This document shows, piece by piece, positions 8,133 through 42,621 of a stretch of DNA of 64,000 nt. The position numbers and the translations under genes are program-made. The notes below the pieces were generated by a model. The model was not told where the DNA came from, made no database searches, and worked only from the letters and a program-made list of their open reading frames with translations. How positions within the stretch are numbered: position 1 is the stretch's first letter; every line of letters starts with the position of its first letter. The stretch is from Nevskia sp. (lineage in GTDB: Bacteria > Pseudomonadota > Gammaproteobacteria > Nevskiales > Nevskiaceae), in contig JAQGNS010000428.1 in the NCBI GenBank assembly GCA_028291705.1, positions 9,255 to 73,254 on the forward strand, written 5' to 3'.

Positions 8133-8650
8133 ACCGGTCGGGGTAGCAGCACCATCTCGGTGCTGGTCAGCCGGTCGTAGAACGCGCGGCGCCTGCCGTC
8201 GAGCAGCAGAAACGCCACGGCAATGAAGGTGTAGGCCGCACAGGCGCCCGTCGTCTCGACGCGGTACGGTACGGTCGCCGTCACGGCGGCCGGCAGCGCC
8301 GGCAGCATCAGCACTGCCAGCGCGATCAGCCAGCTGGCCAGCATCAGGGTATAGCGCACCGCGGCCACCGGCCAGCGCACCGCCGCACCATCGGCGCGCA
8401 CCAGTTGCAGGCGCCAGGAGCGCATTCCCAGTGTTTGCCCGCCATGGGTCCAGGACCAGCCGAAAAAGGCCAGCCCGGTGAGGAACAGGAGCAGTGAATT
8501 GGCATGGTCGTTACGGGCCACCTCCACCAGGTTGTGCATGAACAGGCTGGCTAGCAGAACCACCATCCACAGCGCCAGCAGCAGCAGGCCGTCGTAGCAG
8601 GCGGCGGCCAGGCGTCGCCAGGGCGAAGCGGGGAGTGCGGGGGCTGTCAT
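8129..8650 (-). CDS. RDD family membrane protein
   Basis: WRRLAAACYD, GQTLGMRSWRL and YDRLTST RDD motifs; usual position after lptG. Confidence 0.92.
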   Translation of the reverse strand: MTAPALPASPWRRLAAACYDGLLLLALWMVVLLASLFMHNLVEVARNDHANSLLLFLTGLAFFGWSWTHGGQTLGMRSWRLQLVRADGAAVRWPVAAVRYTLMLASWLIALAVLMLPALPAAVTATVPYRVETTGACAAYTFIAVAFLLLDGRRRAFYDRLTSTEMVLLPRPV

Positions 8651-8759
8651 GGTGTGGTGCGTCGCAGAAGCGTAGGATGGGTGGGCTACTTGTCACGATT
8701 CCGGCGGCTCGCCGGGGGCAGGTATTGTACAAACTGGCGGTTGCGCACTGGGGGAGACC

Positions 8760-8918
8760 ATGGCGGAAGAAGATCCTTCACTGCTTGATCGCAGCGGCAT
8801 TTTCTATGTCAGCCCGCGCGAGCATCGCCGCAAGCTGACCCGGCGCGCGCACTGGGCCCTGTGGGCCTTGCTGGTCGGCTTCGCCACGGGTTTCGTGGTG
8901 GTGCGCCTGTTTTTCTGA
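8760..8918 (+). CDS. Small single-pass membrane protein (52 aa), absent from the ORF track
   Basis: GGGGAG RBS before ATG at 8760. MAEEDPSLLDRSGIFYVSPREHRRKLTRRAHWALWALLVGFATGFVVVRLFF: basic patch then one TM helix. Apparent homologue at 55804-55926. Confidence 0.65.
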   Translation: MAEEDPSLLDRSGIFYVSPREHRRKLTRRAHWALWALLVGFATGFVVVRLFF

Positions 8919-9248
8919 GGCCGGCACAAAAATGGCCGGGCCGGGCTTGGCCGGGCCCTGCCGGCGTTCCCGAGCACCTGGGCGGCCTTCGGGCCGCGTT
9001 CCGGCTGCCCTTGCGGGGCAAGCCGGGACTCGATTGCCGCCGGGCGGACTGGCCGTCATATTCCGTTCGCATCAAACCGGTATACGGTACCAGCCGGGAC
9101 TCCCGACGCTTGGATCCGACCATGACGGCCCGTTTCCTGCGTTAGGATTAGGGAACCAGGATCGCGTGACGGGGCGCAATCCGGGCGCCGGCATCCACCA
9201 GGCAGCATTCCGGCGGGAGCTGAATTCAAAATGGGAGTTCGCGGGCCG

Positions 9249-9716
9249 ATGGCCGTGCGTAAAAAATACCTTTTCGATTCCTTGTCGGATTTCATCGGCA
9301 AGGAGCTTGGCGTCACCGACTGGACCGTGATCAGCCAGGAGCAGATCAACCTGTTCGCGGATTGCACCGGGGACCGGCAGTGGATGCACGTCGACGCCGA
9401 GCGCTGCCGCCGGGAAAGCCCCTACGGCGCGCCGGTGGCGCACGGCTTCCTGGTGCTGTCGGTGCTGGCCAAGCTGGTGGCGGACCTCGGCGGCATCCCG
9501 GAAGACGCCACCGGTGCCATCAATACCGCTGTCAACAACGTACGTTTCCGGGCGCCGGTGCTGGCCGGCGCGCGGGTGCGCGCCCGCGCGGGCATCGCCG
9601 GGGTTGCGCCGCTCAACGAAACCCAGAGCCTGGTTACCGCGGCGGTGGAACTGGAAGTGGAGGGCGGGGCCGCCCCGGCCCTGACGGCGGACCTGATGGT
9701 GCTGATGTTCCGCTGA
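9249..9716 (+). CDS. MaoC-family (hot-dog fold) dehydratase
   Basis: IGKELGVTDWTVISQEQINLFADCTGDRQWMHVD and AHGFLVLS motifs. Confidence 0.9.
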   Translation: MAVRKKYLFDSLSDFIGKELGVTDWTVISQEQINLFADCTGDRQWMHVDAERCRRESPYGAPVAHGFLVLSVLAKLVADLGGIPEDATGAINTAVNNVRFRAPVLAGARVRARAGIAGVAPLNETQSLVTAAVELEVEGGAAPALTADLMVLMFR

Positions 9717-9750
9717 GGCGCCGCCCGGCCAGCCGCAGCCCACGCTGTTT

Positions 9751-9779
9751 TTGTGTCGCGCCGCAGCCTCCCCTATAAT
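9751..9779 (+). promoter_or_regulatory. sigma70 promoter of tRNA-Glu
   Basis: TTGTGT (9751-9756), 17 bp spacer, TATAAT (9774-9779), then a GC-rich discriminator GCGCGCC, 14 bp before the tRNA. Confidence 0.75.
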
Positions 9780-9793
9780 GCGCGCCTTGCAAC

Positions 9794-9869
9794 GCTCCTA
9801 TCGTCTAGAGGCCTAGGACGGAGCCCTCTCAAGGCTTAAACCCGGGTTCGAATCCCGGTAGGAGCGCCA
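9794..9869 (+). tRNA. tRNA-Glu, anticodon CTC
   Basis: 76 nt. Acceptor stem GCTCCTA/TAGGAGC, anticodon stem GAGCC/GGCTT with loop CT-CTC-AA, T-arm CCGGG-TTCGAAT-CCCGG, encoded CCA. Confidence 0.96.
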
Positions 9870-11376
9870 TGCTTACCGGGTTTATCCCGGTATTAGTGGC
9901 CGAGACCGCGTACTCGATTCGGCATTCCAGGGAAGCTGGATCGAGCACGATCTCCTTTACGAAGCTGCGCAGCGTCACCTTGAGCGCCTCGGGCTTGGCA
10001 TCCCGCATACTTTCAGCCAGGTCGGACAGGATATGGCGCATTTCTGCCACGCTGATTGAACGAACGGCCTTGCCCAGGTCTTCCTGCTCGCGCAGATCCT
10101 GTTGCTGCTCCACCAATTCCTTCCGCTCCCGCTCCAGGGCCTCGATCTTGCGCTGGAATGGCCCAGGGTCCTCCATGCCCAGCGCCAGGCTGGCCGCCTT
10201 GTCGATCATCACGGCGATCTCCGCGATGCGCCGGTGTAGTTCCTTGAGCTGGGCGCTGTAGTCCGGTCCCTTGCTGGCCGTCTCGCGGATCAGAGCCTGC
10301 GCGAACGGCTCGCTGGGCAGGTCGGACGTGATCCGATCCAGGATGGGCTGTTCGACCGTTTGGAGGGGTACATAGCGCTTGCTGCCGTCCGGCCGCTCGG
10401 CGAAGTAGTGCGCACCTTTATTGCCCTCCCAAGTGATGCCGTTGGGCGTCATCAGCAGACCGGACAGCAGGTAGCGGGATACGCCGGCCTTGCCCTGGGA
10501 CACCGCCTTGGCGTGGTCGCTATGCTCTAGCAGGTTCAGGATCGCCTCGGCCTGTTGGCGTGTAATGAGCGCGGGGTGGGTGTCCGATTGGATCACCCAC
10601 TCGGAGCGCGGGCGGCGCTTGCGCTGGCCCTTATAGCCGCCGGTGCTGGTACGCTCTTGGAACACGCCGAAGGTGGTGCAGCCGGCGTAAGTAAGGGCGT
10701 TCCACTCGATGCCCACCAGGGTGGAGGAACTGAGTTCGAGTCCGGCCGCGTGCGCCGCCTGCATGCGGGGCAGGTTGGTCGCCCGCAGATCCAGAAACTT
10801 CTGGACCTTTGAAGATTCCAACGCTGGCTCCAGCACGGACTTGGTCACCGGTGCGCCATCGCGCACCAGCCCAATATCCACCTTGCGCAGGCGGTAGCCG
10901 TAGGGTGCGTGCCCGGCGGCCCGGTAGCCCTGGCGGACGTTCTCGGCCATGCCGGCGAGGCCCTTATCGCGGCTGGTCAGGCTGTGCCACTCGTCGAACG
11001 CCTGCATGACGGCCCGGACGATCATCATCGTCGTGGGGTCGCCGTTGTCCGGAAGGTTGGCGTAGATCACTTCAACGTCGTTGTTGAAGCACTCGACCTC
11101 TTCGAAGATCAGGGCCAGGTTGCGCCGTCGCGCGATGCGGCTGGTGTCCTTGGTCAGCACCGCGGTCCAGCCGCGCGAGCGGTTGCGGATCGCCTTGATG
11201 AGTTTTTGGAAGCCGGGGCGGTCCCAATCCTTGCCTGATTCGACCGCGTCCGAGTATTCCCCGACAAGGGTCAGGCCGCGCTGCGCCGCCAGCGCAGTCA
11301 GCTCATGCCGCTGGCTTTGGATCGAGACGTCTTTTTGGTCCTTGCTGGACCGGAGATACAGAACGGCGTGTTTCAT
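9829..11376 (-). CDS. Large serine recombinase (integrase)
   Basis: N-terminal YLRSS catalytic motif, DAVESG...RPGF, DTSRIAR, recombinase domain (APYGY; HPALIT), coiled coil. Last codons overlap the tRNA antisense strand. Confidence 0.93.
   Translation of the reverse strand: MKHAVLYLRSSKDQKDVSIQSQRHELTALAAQRGLTLVGEYSDAVESGKDWDRPGFQKLIKAIRNRSRGWTAVLTKDTSRIARRRNLALIFEEVECFNNDVEVIYANLPDNGDPTTMMIVRAVMQAFDEWHSLTSRDKGLAGMAENVRQGYRAAGHAPYGYRLRKVDIGLVRDGAPVTKSVLEPALESSKVQKFLDLRATNLPRMQAAHAAGLELSSSTLVGIEWNALTYAGCTTFGVFQERTSTGGYKGQRKRRPRSEWVIQSDTHPALITRQQAEAILNLLEHSDHAKAVSQGKAGVSRYLLSGLLMTPNGITWEGNKGAHYFAERPDGSKRYVPLQTVEQPILDRITSDLPSEPFAQALIRETASKGPDYSAQLKELHRRIAEIAVMIDKAASLALGMEDPGPFQRKIEALERERKELVEQQQDLREQEDLGKAVRSISVAEMRHILSDLAESMRDAKPEALKVTLRSFVKEIVLDPASLECRIEYAVSATNTGINPVSMALLPGFEPGFKP
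9837..9884. repeat. att-like site A: TAAACCCGG-N30-CCGGGTTTA overlapping the tRNA 3' end
   Basis: 9-bp inverted repeat at 9837-9845 and 9876-9884; same arms and spacing as site B. Confidence 0.6.
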
Positions 11377-11506
11377 GGCACTTCTGCTCCTGGAGTGCCT
11401 TGATGCGGGACTCGATCAGCGGCAGCAGCAGATGCGCGAATGCGGGATCGGGCCGGCCGACTGAAGGCAGCATCTTGAGTTGCTGCCGCGAAGGGCCGCG
11501 AGCCAT
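11303..11506 (-). CDS. Possible small protein upstream of and overlapping the integrase start (directionality-factor candidate)
   Basis: 67-aa ORF MARGPSRQQLKMLPSVGRPDPAFAHLLLPLIESRIKALQEQ..., co-oriented with the integrase. Supported by position only. Confidence 0.35.
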   Translation of the reverse strand: MARGPSRQQLKMLPSVGRPDPAFAHLLLPLIESRIKALQEQKCHETRRSVSPVQQGPKRRLDPKPAA

Positions 11507-11826
11507 GTCAGGGCCCGCCCCGCTTTCCCGCTGCCGAAGATCTGCTTCGTGCCATCCCTGTCCCGTCCTGACCTCTCATTGGAGGGACAAGGAATATCGC
11601 AAAGATCAGCCAACATTCAAGGATTGCTGTGTACTGATGAATTTATAATGGTATTTATGACTTGTAAAGCCCCATGTACATGCAAATAGTTTTGTAGGAA
11701 CGACGCTTGATATCTGACCGGTGCAAATGCCTTTTGCGTAGCTTAAAAGACGAAGGATGGTGATTGAAATTGGAAGGGTGAGAACGATGATTGAGAATAT
11801 ATAAGTCACTTCTATATGAGCATATA

Positions 11827-11874
11827 TAAACCCGGATTCTTGTAAATTTATCTACTTGCGCCAACCCGGGTTTA
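11827..11874. repeat. att-like site B: TAAACCCGG-N30-CCGGGTTTA in an AT-rich tract
   Basis: Arms at 11827-11835 and 11866-11874 (extendable to the 11-bp TATAAACCCGG/CCGGGTTTATA). Spacer contains TA...GCGCCA like the tRNA end. Confidence 0.6.
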
Positions 11875-12035
11875 TACGTAGATGTATGCCTCTATCACCG
11901 TCAATACCGGCGGTCGTAAGGCGCCGGTACCCCAGAGATGCCCCTCGTCCTCGAACTGCCGCCGCACTCGCTCTACCGGATCAAACAACGGCCGTACCGC
12001 TGCCGGCGCCGTAAGCGGCCTCGGCCAAGCTGCGC

Positions 12036-12683
12036 GTGACCCCCGAGCAGCTACCGCGCGCCTTGGTTCAGGGCGACTTGTTCAAAGCCGACATCGCCTG
12101 GTTTCCGGTTCTATGCGAGATGCTGCGCAGCGGCGCGGCGGCCGACCTTCAGCCGCACACGATGATGGTGTACCTCACCTTGAAGTCCTACGCCGACTTC
12201 AACACTGGAATCGCCCAGACCACCATAGAGACGGTTGCCAAGGAAACCGGCATGTCAGTGCGTCAGGCCGCGACCAGCGTAGGCCGGCTGGTCGGCAAGG
12301 GTTTAATCCGGCGCCTGCGCAAGGGTGGACGCGACCGCAGCAGCGCTTACCAGATCGTCGAGCGGCTGACGATCAAGGACCACGGCAACAACACAGTGGC
12401 GATCGCCGACTGGGAATTCATCCGCCGCGATTGGCAGGGCCATCTCCGGGAAATCCGCCAGGCCGTGCTGGACGAGCTGCAGCGCACGGCGGGGTCGGCG
12501 GGTGGCCTGTCGGATCGGCATCTGGTCCTGATCGAGAACCTGCAGGTCAATTTGCAGCTCATCCAGAACCAGTTCGTCCATCCGACGAACGGTACCCCGG
12601 CGACGTCGCCTGCTAGGGACTCCGCGCACTCGCAAAACTATCCACAGCGTGGGGTCCGCTTTTATCCACAAGGAGGGAAATGA
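12036..12683 (+). CDS. Winged-HTH (HTH_36-like) DNA-binding protein, candidate replication initiator
   Basis: VYLTLKSYADFNTG...IETVAKETGMSVRQAATSVGRLVGKGLIRR wHTH pattern; GTG start; followed by DnaA boxes and parA. Confidence 0.75.
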   Translation: MTPEQLPRALVQGDLFKADIAWFPVLCEMLRSGAAADLQPHTMMVYLTLKSYADFNTGIAQTTIETVAKETGMSVRQAATSVGRLVGKGLIRRLRKGGRDRSSAYQIVERLTIKDHGNNTVAIADWEFIRRDWQGHLREIRQAVLDELQRTAGSAGGLSDRHLVLIENLQVNLQLIQNQFVHPTNGTPATSPARDSAHSQNYPQRGVRFYPQGGK

Positions 12684-12857
12684 CATGCACCACCTGCCGG
12701 TAATTGCCCCTTTAGCGTGCACTAGGTGCCGGTTAATCAAACAATTAACAGGCACCACGTGCAGACAAGAAAGAATAAAGAAAAAGAGCTTTTTAAGAAG
12801 GGCCCCGTCCAGCGTTCTGCTGTGGATAAATCGCTGCGCCCCCTTCCTTGTGCACAA
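12638..12857. promoter_or_regulatory. DnaA-box cluster with an A/T-rich stretch (putative oriV)
   Basis: CTATCCACA 12638-12646, TTATCCACA 12662-12670, TGTGGATAA 12821-12829, TTGTGCACA 12848-12856. A-rich tract at about 12730-12800. Confidence 0.6.
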
Positions 12858-12929
12858 CAGCCCAAAAGCCAAAAGCGTTTGCCGAAACGGGCTGGTCGCG
12901 GCCGGCACTGTGCCGACAGGGTTCTGACC

Positions 12930-13607
12930 GTGCGCATCCTCATTGGCGGTGAAAAAGGCGGCAGCGGCAAATCGACCCTGGCAACCAACTTGGTCGTCGC
13001 CCTGCGGCTGGCCGGCCGCGACGCCTTGTTGCTGGACGCGGATGGCCAGCGCACTTCGGCCAAATGGGCCGAACGGCGGGCAGCATCCGAAATCGTCCCG
13101 GCCGTGCCCTGTACCGAGAAGCGCGATGACCTCAAGGCGGTGGTGCGCGAGCTGGGTTCGCGCTATCAGGATGTGGTTGTTGACGCCGGCGGGCGCGACA
13201 GCCGGGAGCTGCGCTCCGCGCTGCTGGTAGCGGATCTGGCCCTGTTTCCGCTGCGGCCGTCGCAGGCGGACCTGGAAACCGTGCCCCATCTGGCCGAGCT
13301 ACTGCAGCTCGCGCGCTCGCTGCGCGAGAACGGTGCTCCGCTCGCTGGACTCGTATTGAGCATGGCGCCGACGCACTACCTGGTCAGTGAAGCTCGCGAC
13401 GCGGCAAGCATGCTCGAAGCCCTGCCGGACTTCGTGCTGGCCGAAACCTTGATCCGCGAACGCAAGGTTTACCGCGACGCATTGCTTTCCGGACGCAGCG
13501 TTCTGGAGATGGACAACGAGACAGCGCACTTCGAGGTGCGCCAACTCATCAAGGAGATCAGCAATGGTGCAATCCAAGTTCCAGTTGCACAGCGCGACCC
13601 TGCCTAG
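12930..13607 (+). CDS. parA: ParA-family ATPase (short, no N-terminal HTH)
   Basis: GTG start VRILIGGEKGGSGKSTLATNL (deviant Walker A), LDADGQRT, VVVDAGG, PLRPSQAD. Confidence 0.9.
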   Translation: MRILIGGEKGGSGKSTLATNLVVALRLAGRDALLLDADGQRTSAKWAERRAASEIVPAVPCTEKRDDLKAVVRELGSRYQDVVVDAGGRDSRELRSALLVADLALFPLRPSQADLETVPHLAELLQLARSLRENGAPLAGLVLSMAPTHYLVSEARDAASMLEALPDFVLAETLIRERKVYRDALLSGRSVLEMDNETAHFEVRQLIKEISNGAIQVPVAQRDPA

Positions 13608-13821
13608 TGCCGCTCCGCCGGCGGAAACGGCGACCGCCAACCGCTTCGTCAATGGTGCAGAGGCACGTAGCACCGAACTGCTGGTGAAGTTCACAGTGCC
13701 GCTGGATAGCGCGCGGCACGACAAGATGCGCGTGCATGCGGCGCTGGCTCGGCGGAGCATGGCGGAATTTCTGCGCGACCTGATCGACCGGTTGCCCGCG
13801 GTCGAACTGCCACCGCGTTAG
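13564..13821 (+). CDS. Ribbon-helix-helix DNA-binding protein (ParG-like partner of ParA)
   Basis: Flexible N-terminus, then VKFTVPLDSARHDKMRVHAALARRSMAEFLRDLIDRL; overlaps the parA end. Confidence 0.75.
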   Translation: MVQSKFQLHSATLPSAAPPAETATANRFVNGAEARSTELLVKFTVPLDSARHDKMRVHAALARRSMAEFLRDLIDRLPAVELPPR

Positions 13822-13833
13822 TCGGAACCTTCA

Positions 13834-15549
13834 TTGCGCTATTCCTGGAAAGATCTGGTGCCGCCGGTGCTGTTCCTGGCGGCCGGTCCCTGGCTGGCTG
13901 GAATGCTGTTCGCTTCGTTTGTCGGCGCCAGGCATTACGTGCCGGGCTACTTCGAATTCGTCGGCATGTGGCATCGCTTTGCGCCCGACCCGCACTACCG
14001 GAAGCTGCTGCATGTGGCCGCTGTAGTTCCGGTGGTGCTAGCGGCCTTGTTTGCGATCATTCCGGCTCTGGCGGGCAGGCCGGCTTACTTCGGCAACGCG
14101 CACTTCGCTGATGAGGCGGAAGTCCGCGCCGCGGGTCTGCGCGCCAGGGAAGGTGTGATTCTCGGCCGGTTGCGCGGCCGTCTGTTGCGAGCGCAAGGCC
14201 AGCTCGGCTTGCTGTTGTTCGCGCCGCCGCGTTCGGGCAAGGGCGTGGGCTTCGTCATTCCAAATCTGCTGACTTGGCGCGATTCAGCCATCGTCAACGA
14301 TCTCAAGCTGGAGAACTACGAGACGACTTCAGGCGCCCGGTCAGCGATGGGCCAGCAAATCGTGCTGTTTGCGCCACTCGATGCCGAAGGGCGCACCCAT
14401 GCCTACAACCCGCTGGACTTCGTATCGAAGGATCGGCGCCTGCGGGTCAATGATGTGCAGGCGATCACCGCCAAGCTGATCGTGACGCCGCCGCGAGCCG
14501 ATCCGATGTGGAGCAACGAGGCGAGGGTGCTGCTCGACGGTCTGATTCTGTTCTTGCTGGATGTGAACCGGCAAGCCTCGCTGGGAGCGGTGTACCGGAT
14601 GGTGCTGTCGGTGCCCAACTTCGCCGACTATCTCACTTGGGCGATGAAGGAATACGATGGCCGGCTCGATCCGGTGGCGGTGATGCAGTTCAACGGGTTC
14701 CTGGGCAAGGCGTTCAAGGAGCAATCGGGCGTGCTTTCGACGCTGAAGGCCTCGCTGTCCCTATTCGCCAACCCGCTGGTGGACCGTGCCACGTCCACTA
14801 CGGAATTCGACCCCAGGGAATTGCGGCGCCGGCCTATGACCATCTACCTCGGCGTAGTGCCGCGTGACATCGCGCGGCTGTCGCCGTTGCTCAATATCTT
14901 CGTGCAGCAGACCTTCGACGGATTGCTCGGGCGGCTGCCGGGGAGGGATGAGCCGCACCAGGTCCTGGCGTTGCTGGACGAGTTCACGGCGCTGGGACGG
15001 CTGGAGAACGTCGAGAAAGGCATTGCCTACTTCGCTGGGTACAACATCATCCTTGCCCCGGTGATACAGGATTTGTCCCAACTGGAGGAGGTATACGGTC
15101 AAGCCGTCACCGAGACTTTCCTGTCCACCGCCAATATCCGTATCGCCTACGCCCAGAACAGCCTCAAGACGGCCAAATACCTGTCGGAGGAGCTGGGCTT
15201 TCGCACCATCACCACGCGGACCAGATCCCGCCATGTCAACGATCCGTGGCAGGGGCATGTCTCGGAATCACAGACCCGGCGCGAGCTACTGCTGCCGCAT
15301 GAAATCCGCGAGCTGGACCGGCGCAAGGCGCTGCTGCTGGTCGAGGCAGCGCCGCCGATCAAGGTGGACAAGATTCGGTACTACCGGGAGCGGGCATTTG
15401 TCCGACTGCTTCGGCCGGAAGTGGGGCGGCCACACCTACGCAACACCACAGTCGAGCCGCCACGAATGCCGGCCGCCGGGCCGCCATTGAGCGACCAGGA
15501 AATCGATCACGTGCTGGAGTCGATTGACTCGAACCGAGCCGCCCGGTGA
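13834..15549 (+). CDS. virD4: Type IV coupling protein, VirD4/TraG family
   Basis: Two N-terminal TM segments, GNAHFA, APPRSGKGVGFVIPNLL (Walker A), LLDEFTALG (Walker B), IQDLSQL. Confidence 0.92.
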   Translation: MRYSWKDLVPPVLFLAAGPWLAGMLFASFVGARHYVPGYFEFVGMWHRFAPDPHYRKLLHVAAVVPVVLAALFAIIPALAGRPAYFGNAHFADEAEVRAAGLRAREGVILGRLRGRLLRAQGQLGLLLFAPPRSGKGVGFVIPNLLTWRDSAIVNDLKLENYETTSGARSAMGQQIVLFAPLDAEGRTHAYNPLDFVSKDRRLRVNDVQAITAKLIVTPPRADPMWSNEARVLLDGLILFLLDVNRQASLGAVYRMVLSVPNFADYLTWAMKEYDGRLDPVAVMQFNGFLGKAFKEQSGVLSTLKASLSLFANPLVDRATSTTEFDPRELRRRPMTIYLGVVPRDIARLSPLLNIFVQQTFDGLLGRLPGRDEPHQVLALLDEFTALGRLENVEKGIAYFAGYNIILAPVIQDLSQLEEVYGQAVTETFLSTANIRIAYAQNSLKTAKYLSEELGFRTITTRTRSRHVNDPWQGHVSESQTRRELLLPHEIRELDRRKALLLVEAAPPIKVDKIRYYRERAFVRLLRPEVGRPHLRNTTVEPPRMPAAGPPLSDQEIDHVLESIDSNRAAR

Positions 15550-35703: not shown

Positions 35704-35737
35704 GCCTGATGCAGCTCGAGATTGAGCTGCATCAGGC
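35704..35737. terminator. Strong hairpin closing the RND/hydrolase operon
   Basis: Perfect 14-bp stem GCCTGATGCAGCTC/GAGCTGCATCAGGC with a 6-nt loop, 11 bp after the stop; weak U tract. Confidence 0.6.
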
Positions 35738-35757
35738 AATCTATTCAAGAGGATGGA

Positions 35758-36312
35758 ATGTCCGCAATTGTTTCAAATGTCGAGAGCAGTGACCGGGTAA
35801 TCGGCTCGATGCGGTATGAACCCGATATCCTCGCGATTGGCCTGGATGTGGTGTTCTGCGGCATCAATCCGGCGTGGAGCGCGGCGGTCGCCGGCCACAA
35901 TTTCTCGCATCGCAGCAATCGCTTCTGGCCCGCATTGCATCTCGCCGGTTTCATCGATGAGTGCCTCGAACCCGAAGACGAACAGCGCTTGCTTCAGTAC
36001 GGTTGTGGCATCACGGTGGTGGTGCGCCGGCCGACTTGCAAGGCAGAGGACGTTGCCACGGAAGAATTTATCCGCGCCAAGGCGGATTTCGAAGCCAAGA
36101 TGCGAGCCCTCGCGCCGCGGTCGATCGCCTTCCTTGGTAAGCGCCCGTTGTCGGCAATGACCGGGCAGGCGAGCATCCCCTGGGGGCGGCAACCAACGCC
36201 CTTTGCCGGAACGCTTGCCTGGGTGCTGCCCAATCCCAGCGGCCTCAACCGGAGTTTCACTCTGAAGGCTCTGGTGGCGGCGTATGCCGAGCTGCGGATG
36301 GCACTTATATGA
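35758..36312 (+). CDS. mug: G/U mismatch-specific DNA glycosylase (UDG family 2)
   Basis: GLDVVFCGINP, NRFWPALHLAGF, GCGITVVVRRPT and VLPNPSGLN match E. coli Mug motifs; GAGGA RBS. Confidence 0.92.
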   Translation: MSAIVSNVESSDRVIGSMRYEPDILAIGLDVVFCGINPAWSAAVAGHNFSHRSNRFWPALHLAGFIDECLEPEDEQRLLQYGCGITVVVRRPTCKAEDVATEEFIRAKADFEAKMRALAPRSIAFLGKRPLSAMTGQASIPWGRQPTPFAGTLAWVLPNPSGLNRSFTLKALVAAYAELRMALI

Positions 36313-36902
36313 CGCGCCCTTTCAAATACCTTTACCACCTTGCGGAGGCGGATAACCTTAACTCCATCCTGGTCCATGGGCTGATGAGCACCGAACGATT
36401 GCTCGGTTTGGCGCACATCTCCGATTCGGACCGCATAACGCAGCTTCGAGGCCACAGGCAGGACAATGTCCGCCTGCCTAACGGTGTGGTGATCCGAGAT
36501 CAGCGGCCGATGCCGCCAACTGCGCTCGCTCGGGCGCTCGACGATGGTCTGGTGCCATCTGATTGGTATGCATTGCTCAACAGCTTCGTTTTCTTGTGGC
36601 CCAACCGAGAGCGCATGGACAGGCAACGCTCCGCTTGTGGCGCTCGCCCCCAGGTCGTGCTCACTTTTGACGGAGTTGCGCTGCTCGATCGCTTTCAGGC
36701 AGATGTCTTCGTATCTCCAATCAATAGCGGGAACGCCCGTCGAAAGGCAGCCCGTCGCGGACGGGGCACACTGATCCCATACAAGACCTGGGTACAAGCT
36801 GGCTGGCCGACGGGTCAGCGTTCGCGTCACCCGGCTGAATTTCTGTTCGCTTGCATCGTACCAGTACAGGCGCCCTACTTGGTTGATATCGCAAGGTTCT
36901 AG
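36309..36902 (+). CDS. DarT-like DNA ADP-ribosyltransferase-fold protein (DUF7002/DUF4433-like)
   Basis: LYHLAEADNLNSILVHGLMS, GHR, FVFLWP and PAEFLF parallel the DarT motifs IYHITHLNNLQGIL, HR, YVPFYF and QAEFLV. ATGA overlap with mug. Confidence 0.72.
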   Translation: MTRPFKYLYHLAEADNLNSILVHGLMSTERLLGLAHISDSDRITQLRGHRQDNVRLPNGVVIRDQRPMPPTALARALDDGLVPSDWYALLNSFVFLWPNRERMDRQRSACGARPQVVLTFDGVALLDRFQADVFVSPINSGNARRKAARRGRGTLIPYKTWVQAGWPTGQRSRHPAEFLFACIVPVQAPYLVDIARF

Positions 36903-37214
36903 CAATGCGTCTTTTTCATTATTTGAAAAAGAGAGACATTATGGATCCATAAGGAAAGCTGTACTGATCGATGCGGCTTAAATTGAGCAAGCTGAGGTCA
37001 CGAGATCTGCTAAGTGGCGCTTCCGGGCGTGATCGTGACTTGCGCAGCCGAAAGCGGACGTCTTTAGTGGCATGTTGACCGCATGTCCGGCAGCTTTTCA
37101 GCACCGACTTCAAGGTGCCGAACGACTCTAACTGGCAAATTCCGTTGAAAAACCCGGTGATCGATGCTGATGCTCCGAGAATCTGCAAAACATGCTCGCG
37201 ACAGTGACGTTCTG

Positions 37215-37983
37215 ACCGCCTATACCCCGCCGACAGATATCCGGATGGGCAATGGGACTATTACCGGTTTTACCTGACGCACTTCGACCTGACCGTCAGC
37301 GATATGGAGGCGGACATTCCCGCGACCCTCGCATCACTCTTGGCGATGCTGCCAGCCTTCCAATTGGCGCGATAACTGCCTGGGAAGCGATGTTCCGGGA
37401 TCAGGGCGCGTTGCCTTCTGGCGTCGAACGTGTGCTCATCGTCGGTGGCGCCGGCGCCGTAGGCTCGCTGGCCACTCAACTACTAAAGGCCAAGACGAAC
37501 GCCTTTGTGATCAGCACTGGCTCTCGTACGGAATCGAAGTCCTGGTGCACGAAGATGGGCGCCGACCTAGTCCTCGATCATTCAGGCGACATACCTGCAC
37601 AGCTTGCTGCGGCCAATGTCACCAACGTCGATATGGTGCTATCGACCGCAAATACGGTCGACAACCTCAGCTGGATTGCACAGGTTCTCCGACCATTCGG
37701 GCATCTCTCCATCATGGATGGCGCTGCGTCGGTAGACACCAGCCAGCTGATGGTGAAGGCCGCTTCGATCCATATGGAAATGGTGTTCAGCAGGATCATT
37801 AACGGCGCCGCCCCACAGCTTCAGGGCAACATCCTCGGGATGATCGCTGATCTCGTTGTAGCCGGTCGAATGAAGCCAATCGTAACGACGCGGCTGAACG
37901 GCTTAAACCCAGAAACCATGAAGGCCGCTCACGAACTCGCGGAGACTGGGCGCACGATCGGCAAAATCGTCATCGCAATGTGA
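37215..37983 (+). pseudogene. Fused remnants: epoxide-hydrolase-like fragment joined to the C-terminal part of a zinc-type alcohol dehydrogenase-like/quinone reductase
   Basis: LYPADRYPDGQWDYYRFY... in one frame. Then AASLPIGAITAWEAM, VLIVGGAGAVGS and GRTIGKIVI in another frame, lacking the N-terminal domain. Confidence 0.65.
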
Positions 37984-38172
37984 TCCATCTGACGATCGCT
38001 TGCCAGTGTGGCCTGCGCAGCGGCACGGCAGACAAAAAGTATCGAACGCTCCACGCGAACAGGAAACGCGGCACTAGGAGGCGGTGCGGCTGCTGATCAA
38101 CCGCGGGCAATTGATCAAAGAGGAACGATGTCAGATTTTGAGGCCGCTCGGCGCTATGCAGGCTTCCGATTA

Positions 38173-39465
38173 TCAGGTCGGCAGGTTGCAGCCATCGGGG
38201 AACTGCGCAGGCGATTTGAGTCGGATAGCCAGCATCGAAGAAAAAGTTTGTACCTTGGAGTCCGGCTGAACGATATCCATATCCACCGACACACAACGGA
38301 AGCCCGCAATGGCCTTCGGGTCCGAAAACTGTAGTGCCTGCACGCTCTTGATTCGCAAGATACGGGTTTCACCAGCGGGGATGGTGATCCAATCTTTGTC
38401 GTCGGAATTAAGCACCTGTACTGGAATCTCACAGTTGGAGCCATTCGCCTCGAACCCGTGAGGGCAACTGCCGCTTCCATCGTAGGTCAGCCTTAAGCGC
38501 ACGCTGTCAGGAGCGATCACCAAAGCGGTGTCAGAATGGTTGGTGAGCGACAGGGGCAGAGGCTTCTGGCTGGCAAAACTCAACATTTCGGCGGGTCGAA
38601 CGTCGAACTGTCCGACGTAGGCGAGTGTCGGATCGCCCAGAGATTGCTCAAGGTGGTCGATCTTGGCCACAACCAGGATTGCAAAAACCAGGAGACCGTA
38701 AGCGGGGGGCGCCAGCTCGATATGGCGAATCCACCGTTTGGGACTTGGAGCGGCGGCATAAAGCACGCGCGTACACAAATAGGTCACTACCAGTAGCGGA
38801 AGCGCGATCGCCAGACTTCCTAGCTTGTAGGGCGAGCCGATAAGTGAGGTTGGCAGGATCAGGGACGCCAGAACTTTGATGCCGACGGTCAGCTCGATCG
38901 CTGCCACCATCATGATCAGCGCGAACGCCGGCGTGTAAAGCACGGCAGCCCGCCATGCCTTGCGACGCACGCCCTTCGCCCTGGCCCCGACCACGGCGTG
39001 AATGACCACGCCGACCAAGAAAACAGGGAACATGACCTTGAAACTGCGTTCCGGGCTTTGAATAACGTCCAGCGCACGCTTATAGAAGCCGAACAGCAGA
39101 TCCAGCCCCTTGATCTGGCTGCTGGCCACAGCCGATGCGTACGCTGTGTTAAACAAGGCGGCCCTGCAGCGGTCGCCGAACATGATGAGCGCCGCCAACA
39201 GGGGCGAAAAAATGAAGAACAGCAATGGGCGGATGCCCTTCTCTCGCTGTACCTCTTCGCTATCCAACAGCGTCTGAGGATTGCGCAGCAGCCAGTACAT
39301 GTCGGTGAACACAGCCCAAAGCCGCCTCACGCCCGACTGAAATCCGCCGACCATCTTCTCTGCCCAGTCGGCTTTAGTGGCTTCCGGTTCGGTTTCGTTG
39401 CCGCCCCGCAGACGAACGAGAAAGGGCGGGGTGGGCGGTTGCCTGCGATTTCCGTGTGACGCCAT
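38173..39465 (-). CDS. Uncharacterised multi-pass membrane protein with a C-terminal beta-rich domain
   Basis: GGGAG RBS 7 nt before ATG at 39465; several TM segments; LLRNP...RPLLFFIFSPLL resembles DUF3667/Yip1-like starts. Confidence 0.7.
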   Translation of the reverse strand: MASHGNRRQPPTPPFLVRLRGGNETEPEATKADWAEKMVGGFQSGVRRLWAVFTDMYWLLRNPQTLLDSEEVQREKGIRPLLFFIFSPLLAALIMFGDRCRAALFNTAYASAVASSQIKGLDLLFGFYKRALDVIQSPERSFKVMFPVFLVGVVIHAVVGARAKGVRRKAWRAAVLYTPAFALIMMVAAIELTVGIKVLASLILPTSLIGSPYKLGSLAIALPLLVVTYLCTRVLYAAAPSPKRWIRHIELAPPAYGLLVFAILVVAKIDHLEQSLGDPTLAYVGQFDVRPAEMLSFASQKPLPLSLTNHSDTALVIAPDSVRLRLTYDGSGSCPHGFEANGSNCEIPVQVLNSDDKDWITIPAGETRILRIKSVQALQFSDPKAIAGFRCVSVDMDIVQPDSKVQTFSSMLAIRLKSPAQFPDGCNLPT

Positions 39466-39495
39466 AGCCTTGCTCCCGAGCGGCTTTTAAAAGAT

Positions 39496-39535
39496 TTGAC
39501 AGCATAACTGTACAAAAGTACAGTTATGCTGTCAA
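39496..39535. promoter_or_regulatory. 40-bp palindrome: symmetric divergent sigma70 promoter with a central LexA box
   Basis: TTGACAGCATAACTGTAC-AAAA-GTACAGTTATGCTGTCAA. CTGT-N8-ACAG at 39508-39523; TTGACA-17-TACAGT on both strands. Confidence 0.75.
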
Positions 39536-39706
39536 GAACCGTGTGCCATGCGCGAATTGCTATGTGCACTGCTGGGGCAGTTGAGCGGGCGGGGCTCTGG
39601 CTTCGGAGCCCCGAGCCAAAGCTCCTCGCTGACTTAACAATTGGGAAAGTGGTTGCTGCGCGTCCGTGGCGCTTAGGATTGGGCTAGGACCACGTTCGAG
39701 GGCTCT

Positions 39707-40006
39707 ATGGCCAACATCGCTCACTTGATGAACCTGACGTTCTGGGGGCTGCATTTGTTTGGCATCCCTATCTGCATCGGTATCTTCTTTGCCCGCCGCA
39801 ATCGCGGCGCAGTGATCCAGCTATCGGTGCTGTTGATCGTCATCTGCGGATGGCTGTTTCTCCAGGGCGGCGCGGTCCGGATCTTGGCGTACAGCCAAGC
39901 GCTGCCCGACCCGCAGCAGCAGGCCGACGCCATCCTATTCTTCTCCACCGCAGTTTACAGCGCGATTGCGGTCAATACCCTTGCCAACGCCTTGACGCGG
40001 GAGTGA
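39707..40006 (+). CDS. Small membrane protein (99 aa, about 3 TM)
   Basis: Three hydrophobic segments; GAGG RBS; 4 bp from the next gene. Confidence 0.65.
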   Translation: MANIAHLMNLTFWGLHLFGIPICIGIFFARRNRGAVIQLSVLLIVICGWLFLQGGAVRILAYSQALPDPQQQADAILFFSTAVYSAIAVNTLANALTRE

Positions 40007-40010
40007 GGCG

Positions 40011-40553
40011 ATGACCATTCCTGTGGAAGAAAGTCAGGTTACGCCGGAGCTGTTGTCCACCTTGGGCCAAGCCGTGATGGACTTTGGATTTATGGAAAGC
40101 GTCGTCCGGACGGCCATCACTACGTTGGCGCGTCATACCACGGTGGCAAAGGCCCTGGTCCTTCCGGGCGACGCCATTTCGCGAAATCTGGAAGTCCTGG
40201 CGCGCTTGTGCCAGGCGCGGGTCCATCCGAGCGCGCAGGGCGACTGGTTGGCCGCGGTGGACGACATCAAGACCTTGTACGAAGAACGCAACCGTATCTT
40301 TCACGGGATGTTCTACGAACACGAAAACAAGCTGTGGCTGTCCAAGACCAAACGCAGCAAACGGGGCCAAGCCGATCAGCATCATCGCATTGAAGTCGAA
40401 ATCCAGATGATTCAGGCCCTGCTACGGCGATTGCACGACCGCCGCCGTCAGTTTATGGACTTCATCGATGATTACGGGCAAGGCGACGACGGACCTGCAC
40501 ATGCGCCGTCGCAGGAAACGCATCCGAGTTTGCGCATCACGGCTAGCGGCTGA
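40011..40553 (+). CDS. Putative HEPN-domain protein
   Basis: Helical composition, N-terminal GQAVMDFGFMES segment, and an R-x4-H motif (ERNRIFHG). Confidence 0.6.
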   Translation: MTIPVEESQVTPELLSTLGQAVMDFGFMESVVRTAITTLARHTTVAKALVLPGDAISRNLEVLARLCQARVHPSAQGDWLAAVDDIKTLYEERNRIFHGMFYEHENKLWLSKTKRSKRGQADQHHRIEVEIQMIQALLRRLHDRRRQFMDFIDDYGQGDDGPAHAPSQETHPSLRITASG

Positions 40554-40615
40554 GGTGATGTTCGCTGCTGGTGGCCCGCTCAAAACTCCGGCCAGATCAC
40601 GAGTTTTGCAGCACC

Positions 40616-40766
40616 CGCCTGCTGCGGCCCGAGGTCGAATGGCCGCGGCTACGAAATGCAGTTGCTGAACCCCCCGCGGATGCCGGCTGCCGGACTGCCC
40701 CTGAGCGACCAAGAGATCGACGAGGTCCTGGCCGGTCTTGGTCCAGAACGAGGCAGCACGCACTGA
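40616..40766 (+). pseudogene. Isolated 3' end of a second virD4-like gene (frameshifted)
   Basis: RLLRPEVEWPRLRNAVAEP / PRMPAAGLPLSDQEIDEVL versus the VirD4 tail RLLRPEVGRPHLRNTTVEPPRMPAAGPPLSDQEIDHVL. One extra C in a C run. Confidence 0.8.
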
Positions 40767-40834
40767 TCCGGGGCGTCACGGTTCCGTCAAATAGCAAGGA
40801 AATTCAGGCTTATCCGCAGCTTGGGCCCGGATTT

Positions 40835-40869
40835 TGGTACCCGGTTTACGGTTATGGCACTCGTAAGTA
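40835..40869 (+). promoter_or_regulatory. Putative ECF-sigma promoter, copy 1
   Basis: TGGTACCCGGTTT-N12-CTCGTAAGTA upstream of the sigma gene; near-identical copy at 42666-42700. Confidence 0.65.
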
Positions 40870-40934
40870 TTTAGGACCCGGAGTTTGTGCCGTATTCCGT
40901 GGGCATTAGGGCGCTGTTTTCATGGGTAAGGTCC

Positions 40935-41495
40935 ATGATAACGGGGCATGTTCGAGGGCTGGATGCTTTGAAGGAAGACAAGCAAACCTTCTGGACGCGG
41001 TTGATCGCCGAGCACTATTCGGCGCTGACCGTGTATTTCCGGCGCCGGATTGCGCAGCCCGCCGAGGCCGAAGATCTGGTGCAGGAAGCCTATATGCGCT
41101 TGATCCGCATCGACCAAGGCGAAGGCGAAGCGATCCACAACCCCGAGGCCTACCTGTTCACCGTGGCGGAAAACCTGGTCCGCGAGCACGCCGTCATGCG
41201 CAAGCGCGCGGCGGTGGACATGGATTTGGACGAACTGGCGCCGGAACTGCTGGCGGTGCATGACACCACGGAGTCGGACCTGGACAAGGGACTGCGCCGG
41301 AAACAGCTGACGGCAGTATTCGAACGGCTGTCGACGCAGCATCGAGCCGTCCTGGTTATGCATTACCGCGACGGCCTCACGTACCAGGGCATCGCCGAGC
41401 AGTTGGGGGTATCGGTTCACATGGTCAAGAAGCATGTCGTCAAGGCGCTAGCGGCCTGCCGCACCGGCTTGGCGCAGTATCGGTGGGAGGATTGA
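40935..41495 (+). CDS. ECF sigma factor (FecI-like); exact start uncertain
   Basis: AEDLVQEAYMRL (region 2), NPEAYLFTVAENL, GLTYQGIAEQLGVSVHMVKKHVVKAL (region 4). Confidence 0.92.
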   Translation: MITGHVRGLDALKEDKQTFWTRLIAEHYSALTVYFRRRIAQPAEAEDLVQEAYMRLIRIDQGEGEAIHNPEAYLFTVAENLVREHAVMRKRAAVDMDLDELAPELLAVHDTTESDLDKGLRRKQLTAVFERLSTQHRAVLVMHYRDGLTYQGIAEQLGVSVHMVKKHVVKALAACRTGLAQYRWED

Positions 41496-41496
41496 T

Positions 41497-42621
41497 ATGA
41501 CCGTTCAGGACGAACGCGTGCGGGAGCTGATCGCCGAGCAGGCAGCGGAGTGGTATGTCGAGAATCGCGGCGGCGAGATGACCGCGCAGCAGAAACAGGA
41601 GTTCATGCGTTGGCTGCGGGCGTCCCCGCTGAATGTCTCCGAATATCTCGCCATCGCTGGAATCGCGCGCGGTGTCGGAAACGTTGCAAAGGGGGTGCAA
41701 ATGCCTTTGGAGGAGTTGATCGCCCAGGCGTCGGCTGACAGCAACGTGGTGCAGCTCCCCACTGCGAATCGGCCTCGCGCCGAACAGGCGTTGTCGATGA
41801 AGCCGGAGCGCCGCCTGAACCGTCCGTTCGCTGGACGGGGTACGTGGGCTTCGGCGGCGGTTGCAGTTGCGATCGTCATCGGCGGTTGGGCTTGGCTTTC
41901 CCAACAAAGCAACAACCAGCAATACGCCACTCGTCACGGTGAGGAACGGACACTGACGCTAGCGGATGATACTGTGGTGCACCTCAACTCGGATTCGGCG
42001 TTGGCAGTTCATTTCGATGAACATCATCGTGATGTTGAAGTCGAGCGCGGGCAGGCTTTATTTGAAGTGGCGAAGGATGCTACGCGGCCGTTCCAGGTCC
42101 GTGCTGGAACTTCTGTGATCGAGGATATCGGGACTGTATTCGATGTGTTCCGGCAGGATGCACAGACGGTAGTGACCGTGGTCGAGGGGCAAGTTACCGT
42201 GTGGGACTCCGCGAGCTTGCTTTTGCCTGCGCCGGCAACATCACCCTCTTCCGCGCTCCTAACGAAACCCCAACCGCTCGCGGACCTGCGCGCGGGTGAC
42301 CAGGTGCGGATCGCACAGACCGGGCAAGTTGAGACAAGGCGGGCAGCCAACGTACAGAAGGCGACTGCCTGGGTGCGGAACGAGATCGTCTTTGATCGGG
42401 ACTCGATCGCTTCGGTGGCCGCCGAGTTCAACCGCTACAACCGAATCCAGATCAAAGTGGACGATCCGCGCGTGGCCGCCATGCCAATCAGCGGTGTGTT
42501 TCACACTTATGACATCGAGTCCTTTGCGGACTTCCTCAACGGACTGCATGGCGTGCATGCGGCGATGCTGAATCAGCAACTTCTCGTAAGCAGCAGGGCT
42601 GCTGCATCTTCGGCCGACTAA
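41497..42621 (+). CDS. FecR-family anti-sigma/transmembrane sensor
   Basis: EQAAEWYV...WLRASP, TM segment, TRHGEERTLTLADDTVVHLNSDS, GQALFEVAKDATRPF, EFNRYN. Confidence 0.93.
   Translation: MTVQDERVRELIAEQAAEWYVENRGGEMTAQQKQEFMRWLRASPLNVSEYLAIAGIARGVGNVAKGVQMPLEELIAQASADSNVVQLPTANRPRAEQALSMKPERRLNRPFAGRGTWASAAVAVAIVIGGWAWLSQQSNNQQYATRHGEERTLTLADDTVVHLNSDSALAVHFDEHHRDVEVERGQALFEVAKDATRPFQVRAGTSVIEDIGTVFDVFRQDAQTVVTVVEGQVTVWDSASLLLPAPATSPSSALLTKPQPLADLRAGDQVRIAQTGQVETRRAANVQKATAWVRNEIVFDRDSIASVAAEFNRYNRIQIKVDDPRVAAMPISGVFHTYDIESFADFLNGLHGVHAAMLNQQLLVSSRAAASSAD

Follow-up and report, generated by a model that had tools for sequence, protein, structure and literature searches.

Does a pair of small genes separated by only a few nucleotides (nt), the second of which encodes a ribonuclease-like motif, represent a two-gene system, or does the second gene stand on its own? 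This question was raised by positions 39707-40553 of a 64,000-nt stretch of Nevskia sp. DNA (assembly GCA_028291705.1, contig JAQGNS010000428.1), which is called the window below. The two genes, ORF1 and ORF2 (ORF, open reading frame), had been described in an earlier reading, the original prediction, as a candidate two-gene defence or toxin unit of a small transmembrane protein and a HEPN-like protein. Our analysis indicated that ORF2 probably represents a new HEPN-like family. This family is rare, stands alone, belongs to the integron-cassette type and has a predicted fold that is unusually isolated. ORF1-ORF2 as a conserved two-gene system was not supported. The two genes are as follows.

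39707-40006, plus strand: ORF1, 99 amino acids (aa), small membrane protein; three hydrophobic segments, RRNR within the first loop
40011-40553, plus strand: ORF2, 180 aa, HEPN-like protein of a rare unnamed family

The stop codon of ORF1 and the ATG of ORF2 were separated by 4 nt (GGCG), and a Shine-Dalgarno-like GAGG/GGAG was located 6-10 nt 5' of both genes. A Logan contig assembled independently from the source soil metagenome matched 36500-42500 with zero differences. In addition, an identical read-length unitig from a second run of the same soil study spanned the ORF1/ORF2 junction. Because these two sequences agreed, the arrangement was not an assembly artefact.

Relatives of ORF2 were collected in several searches. 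A word-indexed search gave 8 relatives at 45-71% identity, an HMMER scan that ran through all of 1.84 billion cluster representatives gave 27 at E <= 1e-3, and a profile search added a few more. No member carried a Pfam domain or an informative name, and the family was not found among plasmid, phage and viral-contig records. ORF1, ORF2 and the gene of a 430-aa membrane protein divergent from them were scanned against Pfam, NCBIfam and PADLOC, and nothing meaningful was obtained; ORF2 had no match in any of the three. Judged by these searches, the ORF2 family is rare and undescribed, with members of about 175 aa.

Two alignments were used to define the conserved residues, A1 with nine close members and A2 with 27 representatives down to 22% identity. 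The conserved elements of ORF2 are the following.

Codons 40095-40109, plus strand: Ex3R element E29-S-V-V-R33 in the first long helix (from the alignments)
Codons 40287-40304, plus strand: Rx4H motif R93-N94-R-I-F-H98 at the C-terminal end of helix 73-97 (from the alignment and the AlphaFold model)
Codons 40479-40553, plus strand: non-helical C-terminal tail G-P-x-H-x-P-S-Q-x-x-H-P-S-L (from the alignments; predicted local distance difference test score, pLDDT, 87-95)

In A2, E29, W79, R93 and N94 were invariant, and H98 and Q147 were kept in at least 90% of the sequences. In A1, E29-x3-R33 and the block E-R-N-x-[IV]-F-H-G-M-F were fixed, and E29-x3-R33 was also present in many distant members. 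The tail P-S-Q-x-x-H-P-S-L was conserved even in members of 25% identity (A2 columns about 195-220). The motif was thus preserved in homologues, as the original prediction had required of it, with R93 and N94 invariant and H98 nearly so in the 27 representatives.

The question of a partner was addressed by examining about 15 independent contexts of ORF2 relatives for common neighbours. An ORF1-like gene or any other conserved neighbour was absent from all of them. The gene upstream of the relative was different in every context (RelA_SpoT, SPFH, ApeA, integrase and unknowns). The settings were as follows.

L001, Methylomicrobium lacus: SPFH protein gene upstream
L002, Pseudomonas metagenome-assembled genome: RelA_SpoT protein and 225-aa unknown upstream
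L003, Aquipseudomonas alcaligenes: 113-aa unknown upstream
L004-6, metagenome: 133-aa unknown upstream
L018-22, metagenome: between tautomerase and cation-efflux genes
L023-25, metagenome: adjoining a Y1 transposase, in a Bacteroidota-like setting
L026, metagenome: array with BrnT/BrnA
JGI metagenome contig: HicA gene on the same contig as the relative
L147 and L149, metagenome: cassette arrays
L148, metagenome: adjoining integrase genes
L151:1-4541, metagenome: relative cut by an insertion sequence (IS), with ApeA and DNA methylase genes in front of it
L152, metagenome: relative of 71% identity, with a divergent ORF upstream and no ORF1
L153, metagenome: 75-aa unknown upstream

A small membrane protein upstream of the relative in L026 was considered as an ORF1 relative and rejected; it had no similarity to ORF1, and an attC-like site parted it from the ORF2 relative. 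The insertion sequence in L151 severed the relative after residue 77, in a defence-island-like setting. L152:1-899 was a fold-back chimera in which about the last 95 nt were the reverse complement of positions 36-130, and the C-terminus of its protein P0009 was artefactual because the contig folds back.

Several of these contexts carried the marks of integrons, in which a cassette is one promoterless ORF between attC recombination sites (R''...R' with GTTRRRY). The array of L003 contained repeats of 74-92 nt (TAACAA...GTTAGGC) spaced 0.5-2.5 kb apart, which are integron attC sites. The same pattern was found on one or both sides of the ORF2 relative in L002, L004, L147 and L149. In L018 and L026 the flanks were attC-like, which agreed in part with what is expected of a cassette. 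By these flanking sites, the ORF2 family is a promoterless single-gene integron cassette in at least seven lineages, including Pseudomonas, Aquipseudomonas and several metagenomic ones. Since it is borne alone in these cassettes, the family would work on its own.

Two of the cassette contexts showed additional mobile features. In L003, two IS110-family copies (8513-9980 and 13285-13384) lay inside attC sites directly downstream of the ORF2 relative. We take them to resemble the attC-targeting IS1111 group. In L018 (3390-4250), the relative and its attC-like flanks, with housekeeping genes around, were located inside a 16-bp inverted repeat, AAACGTGGTCTGTCCC ... GGGACAGACCACGTTT. This repeat suggests that the cassette was carried in by a small non-autonomous element.

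ORF1 was then the remaining side of the proposed pair. Its hydrophobic stretches at 10-29, about 35-55 and 75-93 were of transmembrane length, so the description of the first gene as a small transmembrane protein was upheld. The in-frame codon-usage log-likelihood was 0.37 bits per codon, and the other five frames gave -0.24 or less. Genuine genes of the genome averaged 0.56 bits per codon, with the 5th percentile at 0.05. Because the ORF1 score falls inside this range and the other frames are negative, ORF1 is very probably a real gene. No homologue was found among 5.8 billion proteins, where the search returned ORF1 itself only. There was also no family match in Pfam, NCBIfam or PADLOC and no similarity to the genes upstream of the ORF2 relatives. 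ORF1 is a lineage-specific orphan with host-like codon usage. The GC content at third codon positions (GC3) was 0.82 in ORF1 and 0.71 in ORF2, and this difference hints at different histories of the two genes.

These results bear on the possibility that ORF1-ORF2 is a genuine lineage-specific two-component module switched by the SOS response, in which ORF1 would be a membrane effector, an anchor or an antitoxin-like partner. The 4-bp gap, the separate ribosome-binding sites and a between-gene promoter limited to a weak internal match are all what such a module would show. The same holds for the codon statistics of ORF1, for the LexA-type box upstream (described below) and for the known fusions of HEPN domains to transmembrane segments (PMC3710099). 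However, ORF1 has no homologue at all, and no comparable partner was present in about 15 contexts, even in that of the closest relative with upstream DNA. The family acts as a single-gene cassette elsewhere, and the GC3 gap points to separate histories. We consider the module improbable. The original prediction had named in advance, as a ground for abandoning the unit, that the two genes do not co-occur elsewhere; they were not found together in any other context, and the idea of a two-gene defence or toxin unit was given up.

We next considered whether ORF2 is a HEPN protein. HEPN enzymes are metal-independent ribonucleases (RNases), in which the Rx4H motifs of two subunits are combined into one active site. 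The HEPN families are too divergent for routine detection, and the PDB contains many HEPN structures. Their core consists of four helices in an up-and-down arrangement. The hallmark of the superfamily is an Rx4-6H motif in which the residue following the R is N, D or H, placed where helix 3 ends and running into the loop to helix 4; a second, acidic element, Ex3[KR], often occurs upstream in helix 2 (Anantharaman et al. 2013, PMC3710099). In Csx1, a HEPN protein, a beta hairpin directly follows the motif (PMC3710099).

The predicted structure of ORF2 was compared with this description. A first AlphaFold model from 9 sequences had a pLDDT of 75, and a second from 27 sequences had a pLDDT of 93.2 and a predicted template modelling score of 0.86. 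The second model contained helices 12-40, 43-49, 56-70, 73-97 and 131-155. A three-strand beta meander at 100-128 was placed between helix 73-97 and the last helix, 131-155. Helix 73-97 ended at F97 and H98 started the connection, so that RNRIFH closed the third long helix. The C-terminal tail was modelled confidently (pLDDT 87-95) without secondary structure. The original prediction of a helical protein with an R-x4-H motif agreed with this model, although it had not mentioned the beta meander.

Three features of the family corresponded to the HEPN description. The motif was R93-N94-x3-H98 with a polar residue after the R, its predicted position was where helix 3 ends, and E29-x3-R33 had the form of Ex3[KR]. 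In addition, hhalign was used to compare the family with six accepted HEPN families harvested from genomes: DUF4145, HepT/DUF86, Abi_2, PF05168, AbiU2 and ApeA. HepT/DUF86 was matched with 21.7% probability (P = 1e-3), with RNxxxH aligned on RNxxxH, and relaxed settings gave a collinear alignment across the first, second and last helices. This score was reached by none of 300 column shuffles and by one of 300 block shuffles. The sensitivity of the comparison was weak, as only 2 of 15 true HEPN pairs exceeded 10% (DUF4145-HepT at 51% and DUF4145-PF05168 at 17%).

Other results weighed against HEPN membership. The conserved acidic E29 was located in the first long helix, not in helix 2 as described in PMC3710099. 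The five families other than HepT gave 0.1-0.6% in hhalign, which was at noise level, and one reversed-sequence control reached 6%. Foldseek searches with both ORF2 models against the PDB (twice) and the viral structures of BFVD gave nothing at E < 1e-3, with a best template modelling score (TM-score) of about 0.3. The Pfam HEPN models had zero matches to the 27 members at an E-value limit of 10, a limit at which the HMMER filters still drop most matches above about 0.1. The family profile found nothing relevant among PDB sequences, including 3jrt and HepS.

The main rival follows from these results. ORF2 might have a new non-HEPN alpha+beta fold, in which E...W...RNxxxH...Q has a different role, for example the binding of nucleic acid or of a ligand, or catalysis by another chemistry. 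The likeness to HEPN would then be convergent or coincidental, and the gene would still be cassette cargo. The very confident model without a structural neighbour is what this would predict, and so is the missing profile link to five of the six HEPN families and to any Pfam or PDB entry. The three-strand sheet and the conserved ordered tail are also features that canonical HEPN domains do not have. However, three independent hallmarks (Ex3R, R-N-x3-H and the helix-3 end position) occur in the right order and position, and the match to HepT keeps the motif in register and scores better than the shuffles. Most true HEPN pairs failed the same hhalign control, and Csx1 is a precedent for a beta hairpin after the motif. 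We regard the non-HEPN fold as possible but the less likely of the two. Membership of ORF2 in the HEPN superfamily, probably as a new branch, has in our judgement a somewhat better than even chance on the motifs and the model. It was rated as probable rather than established because the hallmarks fit but the direct fold and profile tests were weak. Thus, the HEPN identity given in the original prediction stood as far as the form of the motif, the Ex3R element and the helix-3 position are concerned, and the profile comparison returned one weak HepT match and the fold searches no structure match.

The expression of ORF2 in this host was examined through the DNA upstream of ORF1, where the following elements were found.

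38173-39465, minus strand: gene of the divergent 430-aa multi-pass membrane protein, with a palindromic promoter/operator probably in common with ORF1-ORF2
39496-39535, both strands: perfect 40-bp palindrome TTGACAGCATAACTGTAC-AAAA-GTACAGTTATGCTGTCAA (18+4+18) with two mirror-image sigma-70-like promoters
39536-39706, plus strand: presumed 5' leader of about 175 nt from the plus-strand promoter to ORF1, without coding signal or special structure

On each strand, the palindrome read TTGACA-17 nt-TACAGT, with the sequence CTGTACAAAAGTACAG inside. It was located 171 nt from ORF1 and 31 nt from the start of the divergent 430-aa gene. These distances and the gene coordinates confirmed the reported layout of two genes 4 bp apart downstream of a palindromic promoter. 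The palindrome is probably the promoter/operator of both ORF1-ORF2 and the 430-aa gene. Nothing else of note was detected in the leader. A 53-aa ORF at 39526-39687 had non-coding codon statistics, there was no Rfam match when the leader was checked for a riboswitch or small RNA, and the RNA fold z-score of -0.27 indicated no unusual folding.

A CTGT-N8-ACAG box of the LexA type, AACTGTAC-AAAA-GTACAGTT, was present at 39508-39523 and overlapped both -10 hexamers. The genome's own lexA gene (C514) had TACTGTTCTTTGGTACAGTA just upstream. The ACTGTAC half-site of the window's AACTGTACAAAAGTACAGTT was found at this lexA gene and at two further sites of the genome. The locus therefore had an operator like the host lexA box over its promoter, as in a LexA regulon, with binding predicted from the sequence. 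Because the box covers both -10 hexamers, it is plausible that LexA represses both divergent transcripts. ORF1-ORF2 expression would probably be inducible by DNA damage. By its position, the 430-aa gene appears to be the one best placed for control by the box.

Exact CTGT-N8-ACAG sites were not enriched in the genome, with 30 found vs roughly 60 expected from base composition, and this counts against the explanation. When RNA-seq runs for the organism were looked for, soil metagenome DNA runs were the only ones found. The LexA-type box was present in none of the ORF2 relatives. SOS control, if real, would thus belong to the window locus alone and would not be a trait of the whole family. The SOS link made in the original prediction was accordingly kept as plausible for this locus, where the box resembles that of the host lexA, and was not extended to the relatives.

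Two other sites of the genome are worth recording. A second LexA-like gene at C288:4590-4800 had a different palindrome, TACTACTTATATAAGTAGTA, upstream, which adds to the caution on SOS control; there may be two LexA regulons in this genome, each with its own box. Genome-wide, the top LexA-type site was AACTGTACATATGTACAGTA (C561:20600-20620), which had the half-site of the window and was followed, at a distance of about 200 nt, by a ParE/GyrB-type topoisomerase subunit gene.

How the cassette-type gene came to lie behind ORF1 was considered from the window copy itself. No attC was found in the window, either by pattern on both strands or with a model for which 15 attC sites of the relatives served as input; this model was sequence-only, without a structure term, as RNAalifold gave no consensus pairs. 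No integron integrase was detected at the curated cut-off in the genome, which is 5.9 Mb and 99% complete. The window ORF2 as an integron cassette was ruled out by the lack of attC and IntI. A GTGAGGC just 5' of the ORF2 start resembled the GTTAGGC core site and was too short to count.

The stretch from about 35.4 to 48 kb had 50-60% GC, vs 65% genome-wide. ORF2 and the 430-aa gene were missing in 60 genomes from the genus, family and order of the host, and the 430-aa gene was not found in plasmid records. By composition and distribution, the window ORF2 is in a low-GC acquired region outside any integron. It is most economical to suppose that the lineage-specific ORF1 had a gene of cassette type captured behind it, and that the 4-bp spacing reflects local operon formation, not an inherited pairing.

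The acquired region also raises the possibility that ORF2 is a decayed or silent cassette remnant without function in this host, and that the palindromic promoter serves only the 430-aa gene. Its place outside an integron without attC, the patchwork region with a truncated dehydrogenase gene and the 171-nt leader to ORF1 would suit a remnant. However, the frame of ORF2 is intact and full length, and all residues invariant in the family are kept. The in-frame codon usage is positive, the ribosome-binding site is good, and by symmetry the plus-strand promoter equals the minus-strand one. We therefore consider a silent remnant highly improbable.

Other genes of the window were noted as context. 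An ORF at 37252-37983 (plus strand) had a match to zinc-type alcohol dehydrogenases in their C-terminal cofactor domain only; it is probably the truncated gene mentioned above and fits a patchwork acquired region. At 35722-36902 (plus strand), a UDG/Mug-type glycosylase gene overlapped the start of a DUF7002 gene, which had weak DarT-like matches in Pfam, PADLOC and NCBIfam. The 430-aa protein had no family match; its C-terminal domain, of about 140 aa, was rich in beta structure and contained cysteine, and its gene is context only, outside any conserved unit with ORF2. At 9794-15549, a tRNA-Glu preceded a large serine recombinase as well as a TraG/VirD4 coupling protein, and this segment looks like a remnant or edge of an integrative conjugative element.

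Taken as a whole, the explanation that we prefer, at slightly better than even confidence, is that ORF2 is a stand-alone HEPN-like branch of cassette type, which lies beside the orphan ORF1 and is possibly SOS-controlled here. ORF2 would form a dimer or higher oligomer, and two RNxxxH motifs would be joined with E29 into a metal-independent RNase site. The protein may be kept inactive, possibly via the ordered C-terminal tail or the oligomeric state, until a phage component, stress or a similar trigger activates it. The active protein would then cut tRNA or mRNA, resulting in growth arrest. ORF1-ORF2 would probably be co-transcribed from one arm of the two-way palindromic promoter, and in the window host most production of ORF2, along with that of ORF1, would follow DNA damage. 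We infer an inactive state until triggering, followed by RNA cleavage, by analogy with HepS, ApeA and the integron-cassette HEPNs, which are compared below.

A more far-reaching proposal is that the family is an unrecognised single-protein immunity or growth-arrest effector of the nuclease type, spread by cassettes, with the tail as a possible autoinhibitory latch and here placed under a LexA operator with a newly arisen membrane protein. Its alpha+beta architecture, which combines a HEPN-like catalytic helix with the three-strand insert and the tail, has no neighbour among solved or viral structures. We regard this proposal as doubtful. If it were true, ORF2 would be a variant, set off by DNA damage, of a system that normally responds to phage.

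Compact effectors of phage defence and growth arrest come from two sources that are growing fast, solo HEPN proteins and integron cassettes. The ORF2 family is small, rare and unannotated in any library, and its structure is predicted confidently without a structural neighbour. If ORF2 is active, a new branch would be added to the HEPN superfamily. The locus also calls for caution in annotation, since two closely spaced genes with a catalytic motif need not form a system; the apparent partner here was a lineage-specific orphan.

The known system closest in sequence was the HEPN-MNT toxin HepT/DUF86 (PF01934), the sole family with a detectable profile match to the ORF2 family; PF01934 gave no HMMER match to ORF2. 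Both proteins are small, mostly helical and of similar size. However, HepT always has an adjacent MNT antitoxin, whereas the ORF2 relatives are partnerless. Unlike HepT, ORF2 also has an insert of roughly 30 residues with three strands after the motif and a conserved C-terminal tail. In ApeA (HEPN_Apea, PF18739), a single-gene anti-phage HEPN protein, RN(Y)xxH aligns with RNRIFH of ORF2. ApeA has a large N-terminal domain, and its profile match to the ORF2 family was 0.6%, which was not significant.

The promoter was also compared with known SOS loci. As in SOS divergent promoters with a shared LexA operator, the CTGT-N8-ACAG of the window lies over both -10 elements. Unlike in those promoters, the palindrome has a perfect 40-bp symmetry that reaches the -35 boxes, and LexA binding here is predicted.

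An integron-cassette HEPN family, PDB 3jrt, has already been described (PMC3710099). For the HEPN-like cassette genes Esos and an AbiU2-type dimer (Vibrio mimicus), anti-phage activity has been shown or proposed. Integron-cassette HEPNs and the ORF2 family alike are stand-alone genes found as single cassettes, with stress dormancy or phage defence as the proposed or shown role. However, the ORF2 family differs in sequence from 3jrt, for which the profile found no match, and from AbiU2 (0.4% in hhalign), and the window copy lies outside a cassette.

HepS of the Salmonella Gifsy-1 prophage is a solo HEPN abortive-infection anticodon nuclease; it does without an antitoxin, as an autoinhibited tetramer that a phage tail protein opens, and its motif is R100-N101-x3-H105 (PMC13043305). 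HepS and ORF2 are both partner-less single-domain proteins, and the motif of HepS is at almost the same position as R93-N94-x3-H98 of ORF2. In contrast, HepS is prophage-borne and the ORF2 family occurred in no phage or viral record, and neither profiles nor Foldseek linked the two. HepS and the cassette HEPNs, which have no relation to the ORF2 family detectable by sequence or fold search, may serve as the mechanistic template for how such a stand-alone protein is held inactive and then released.

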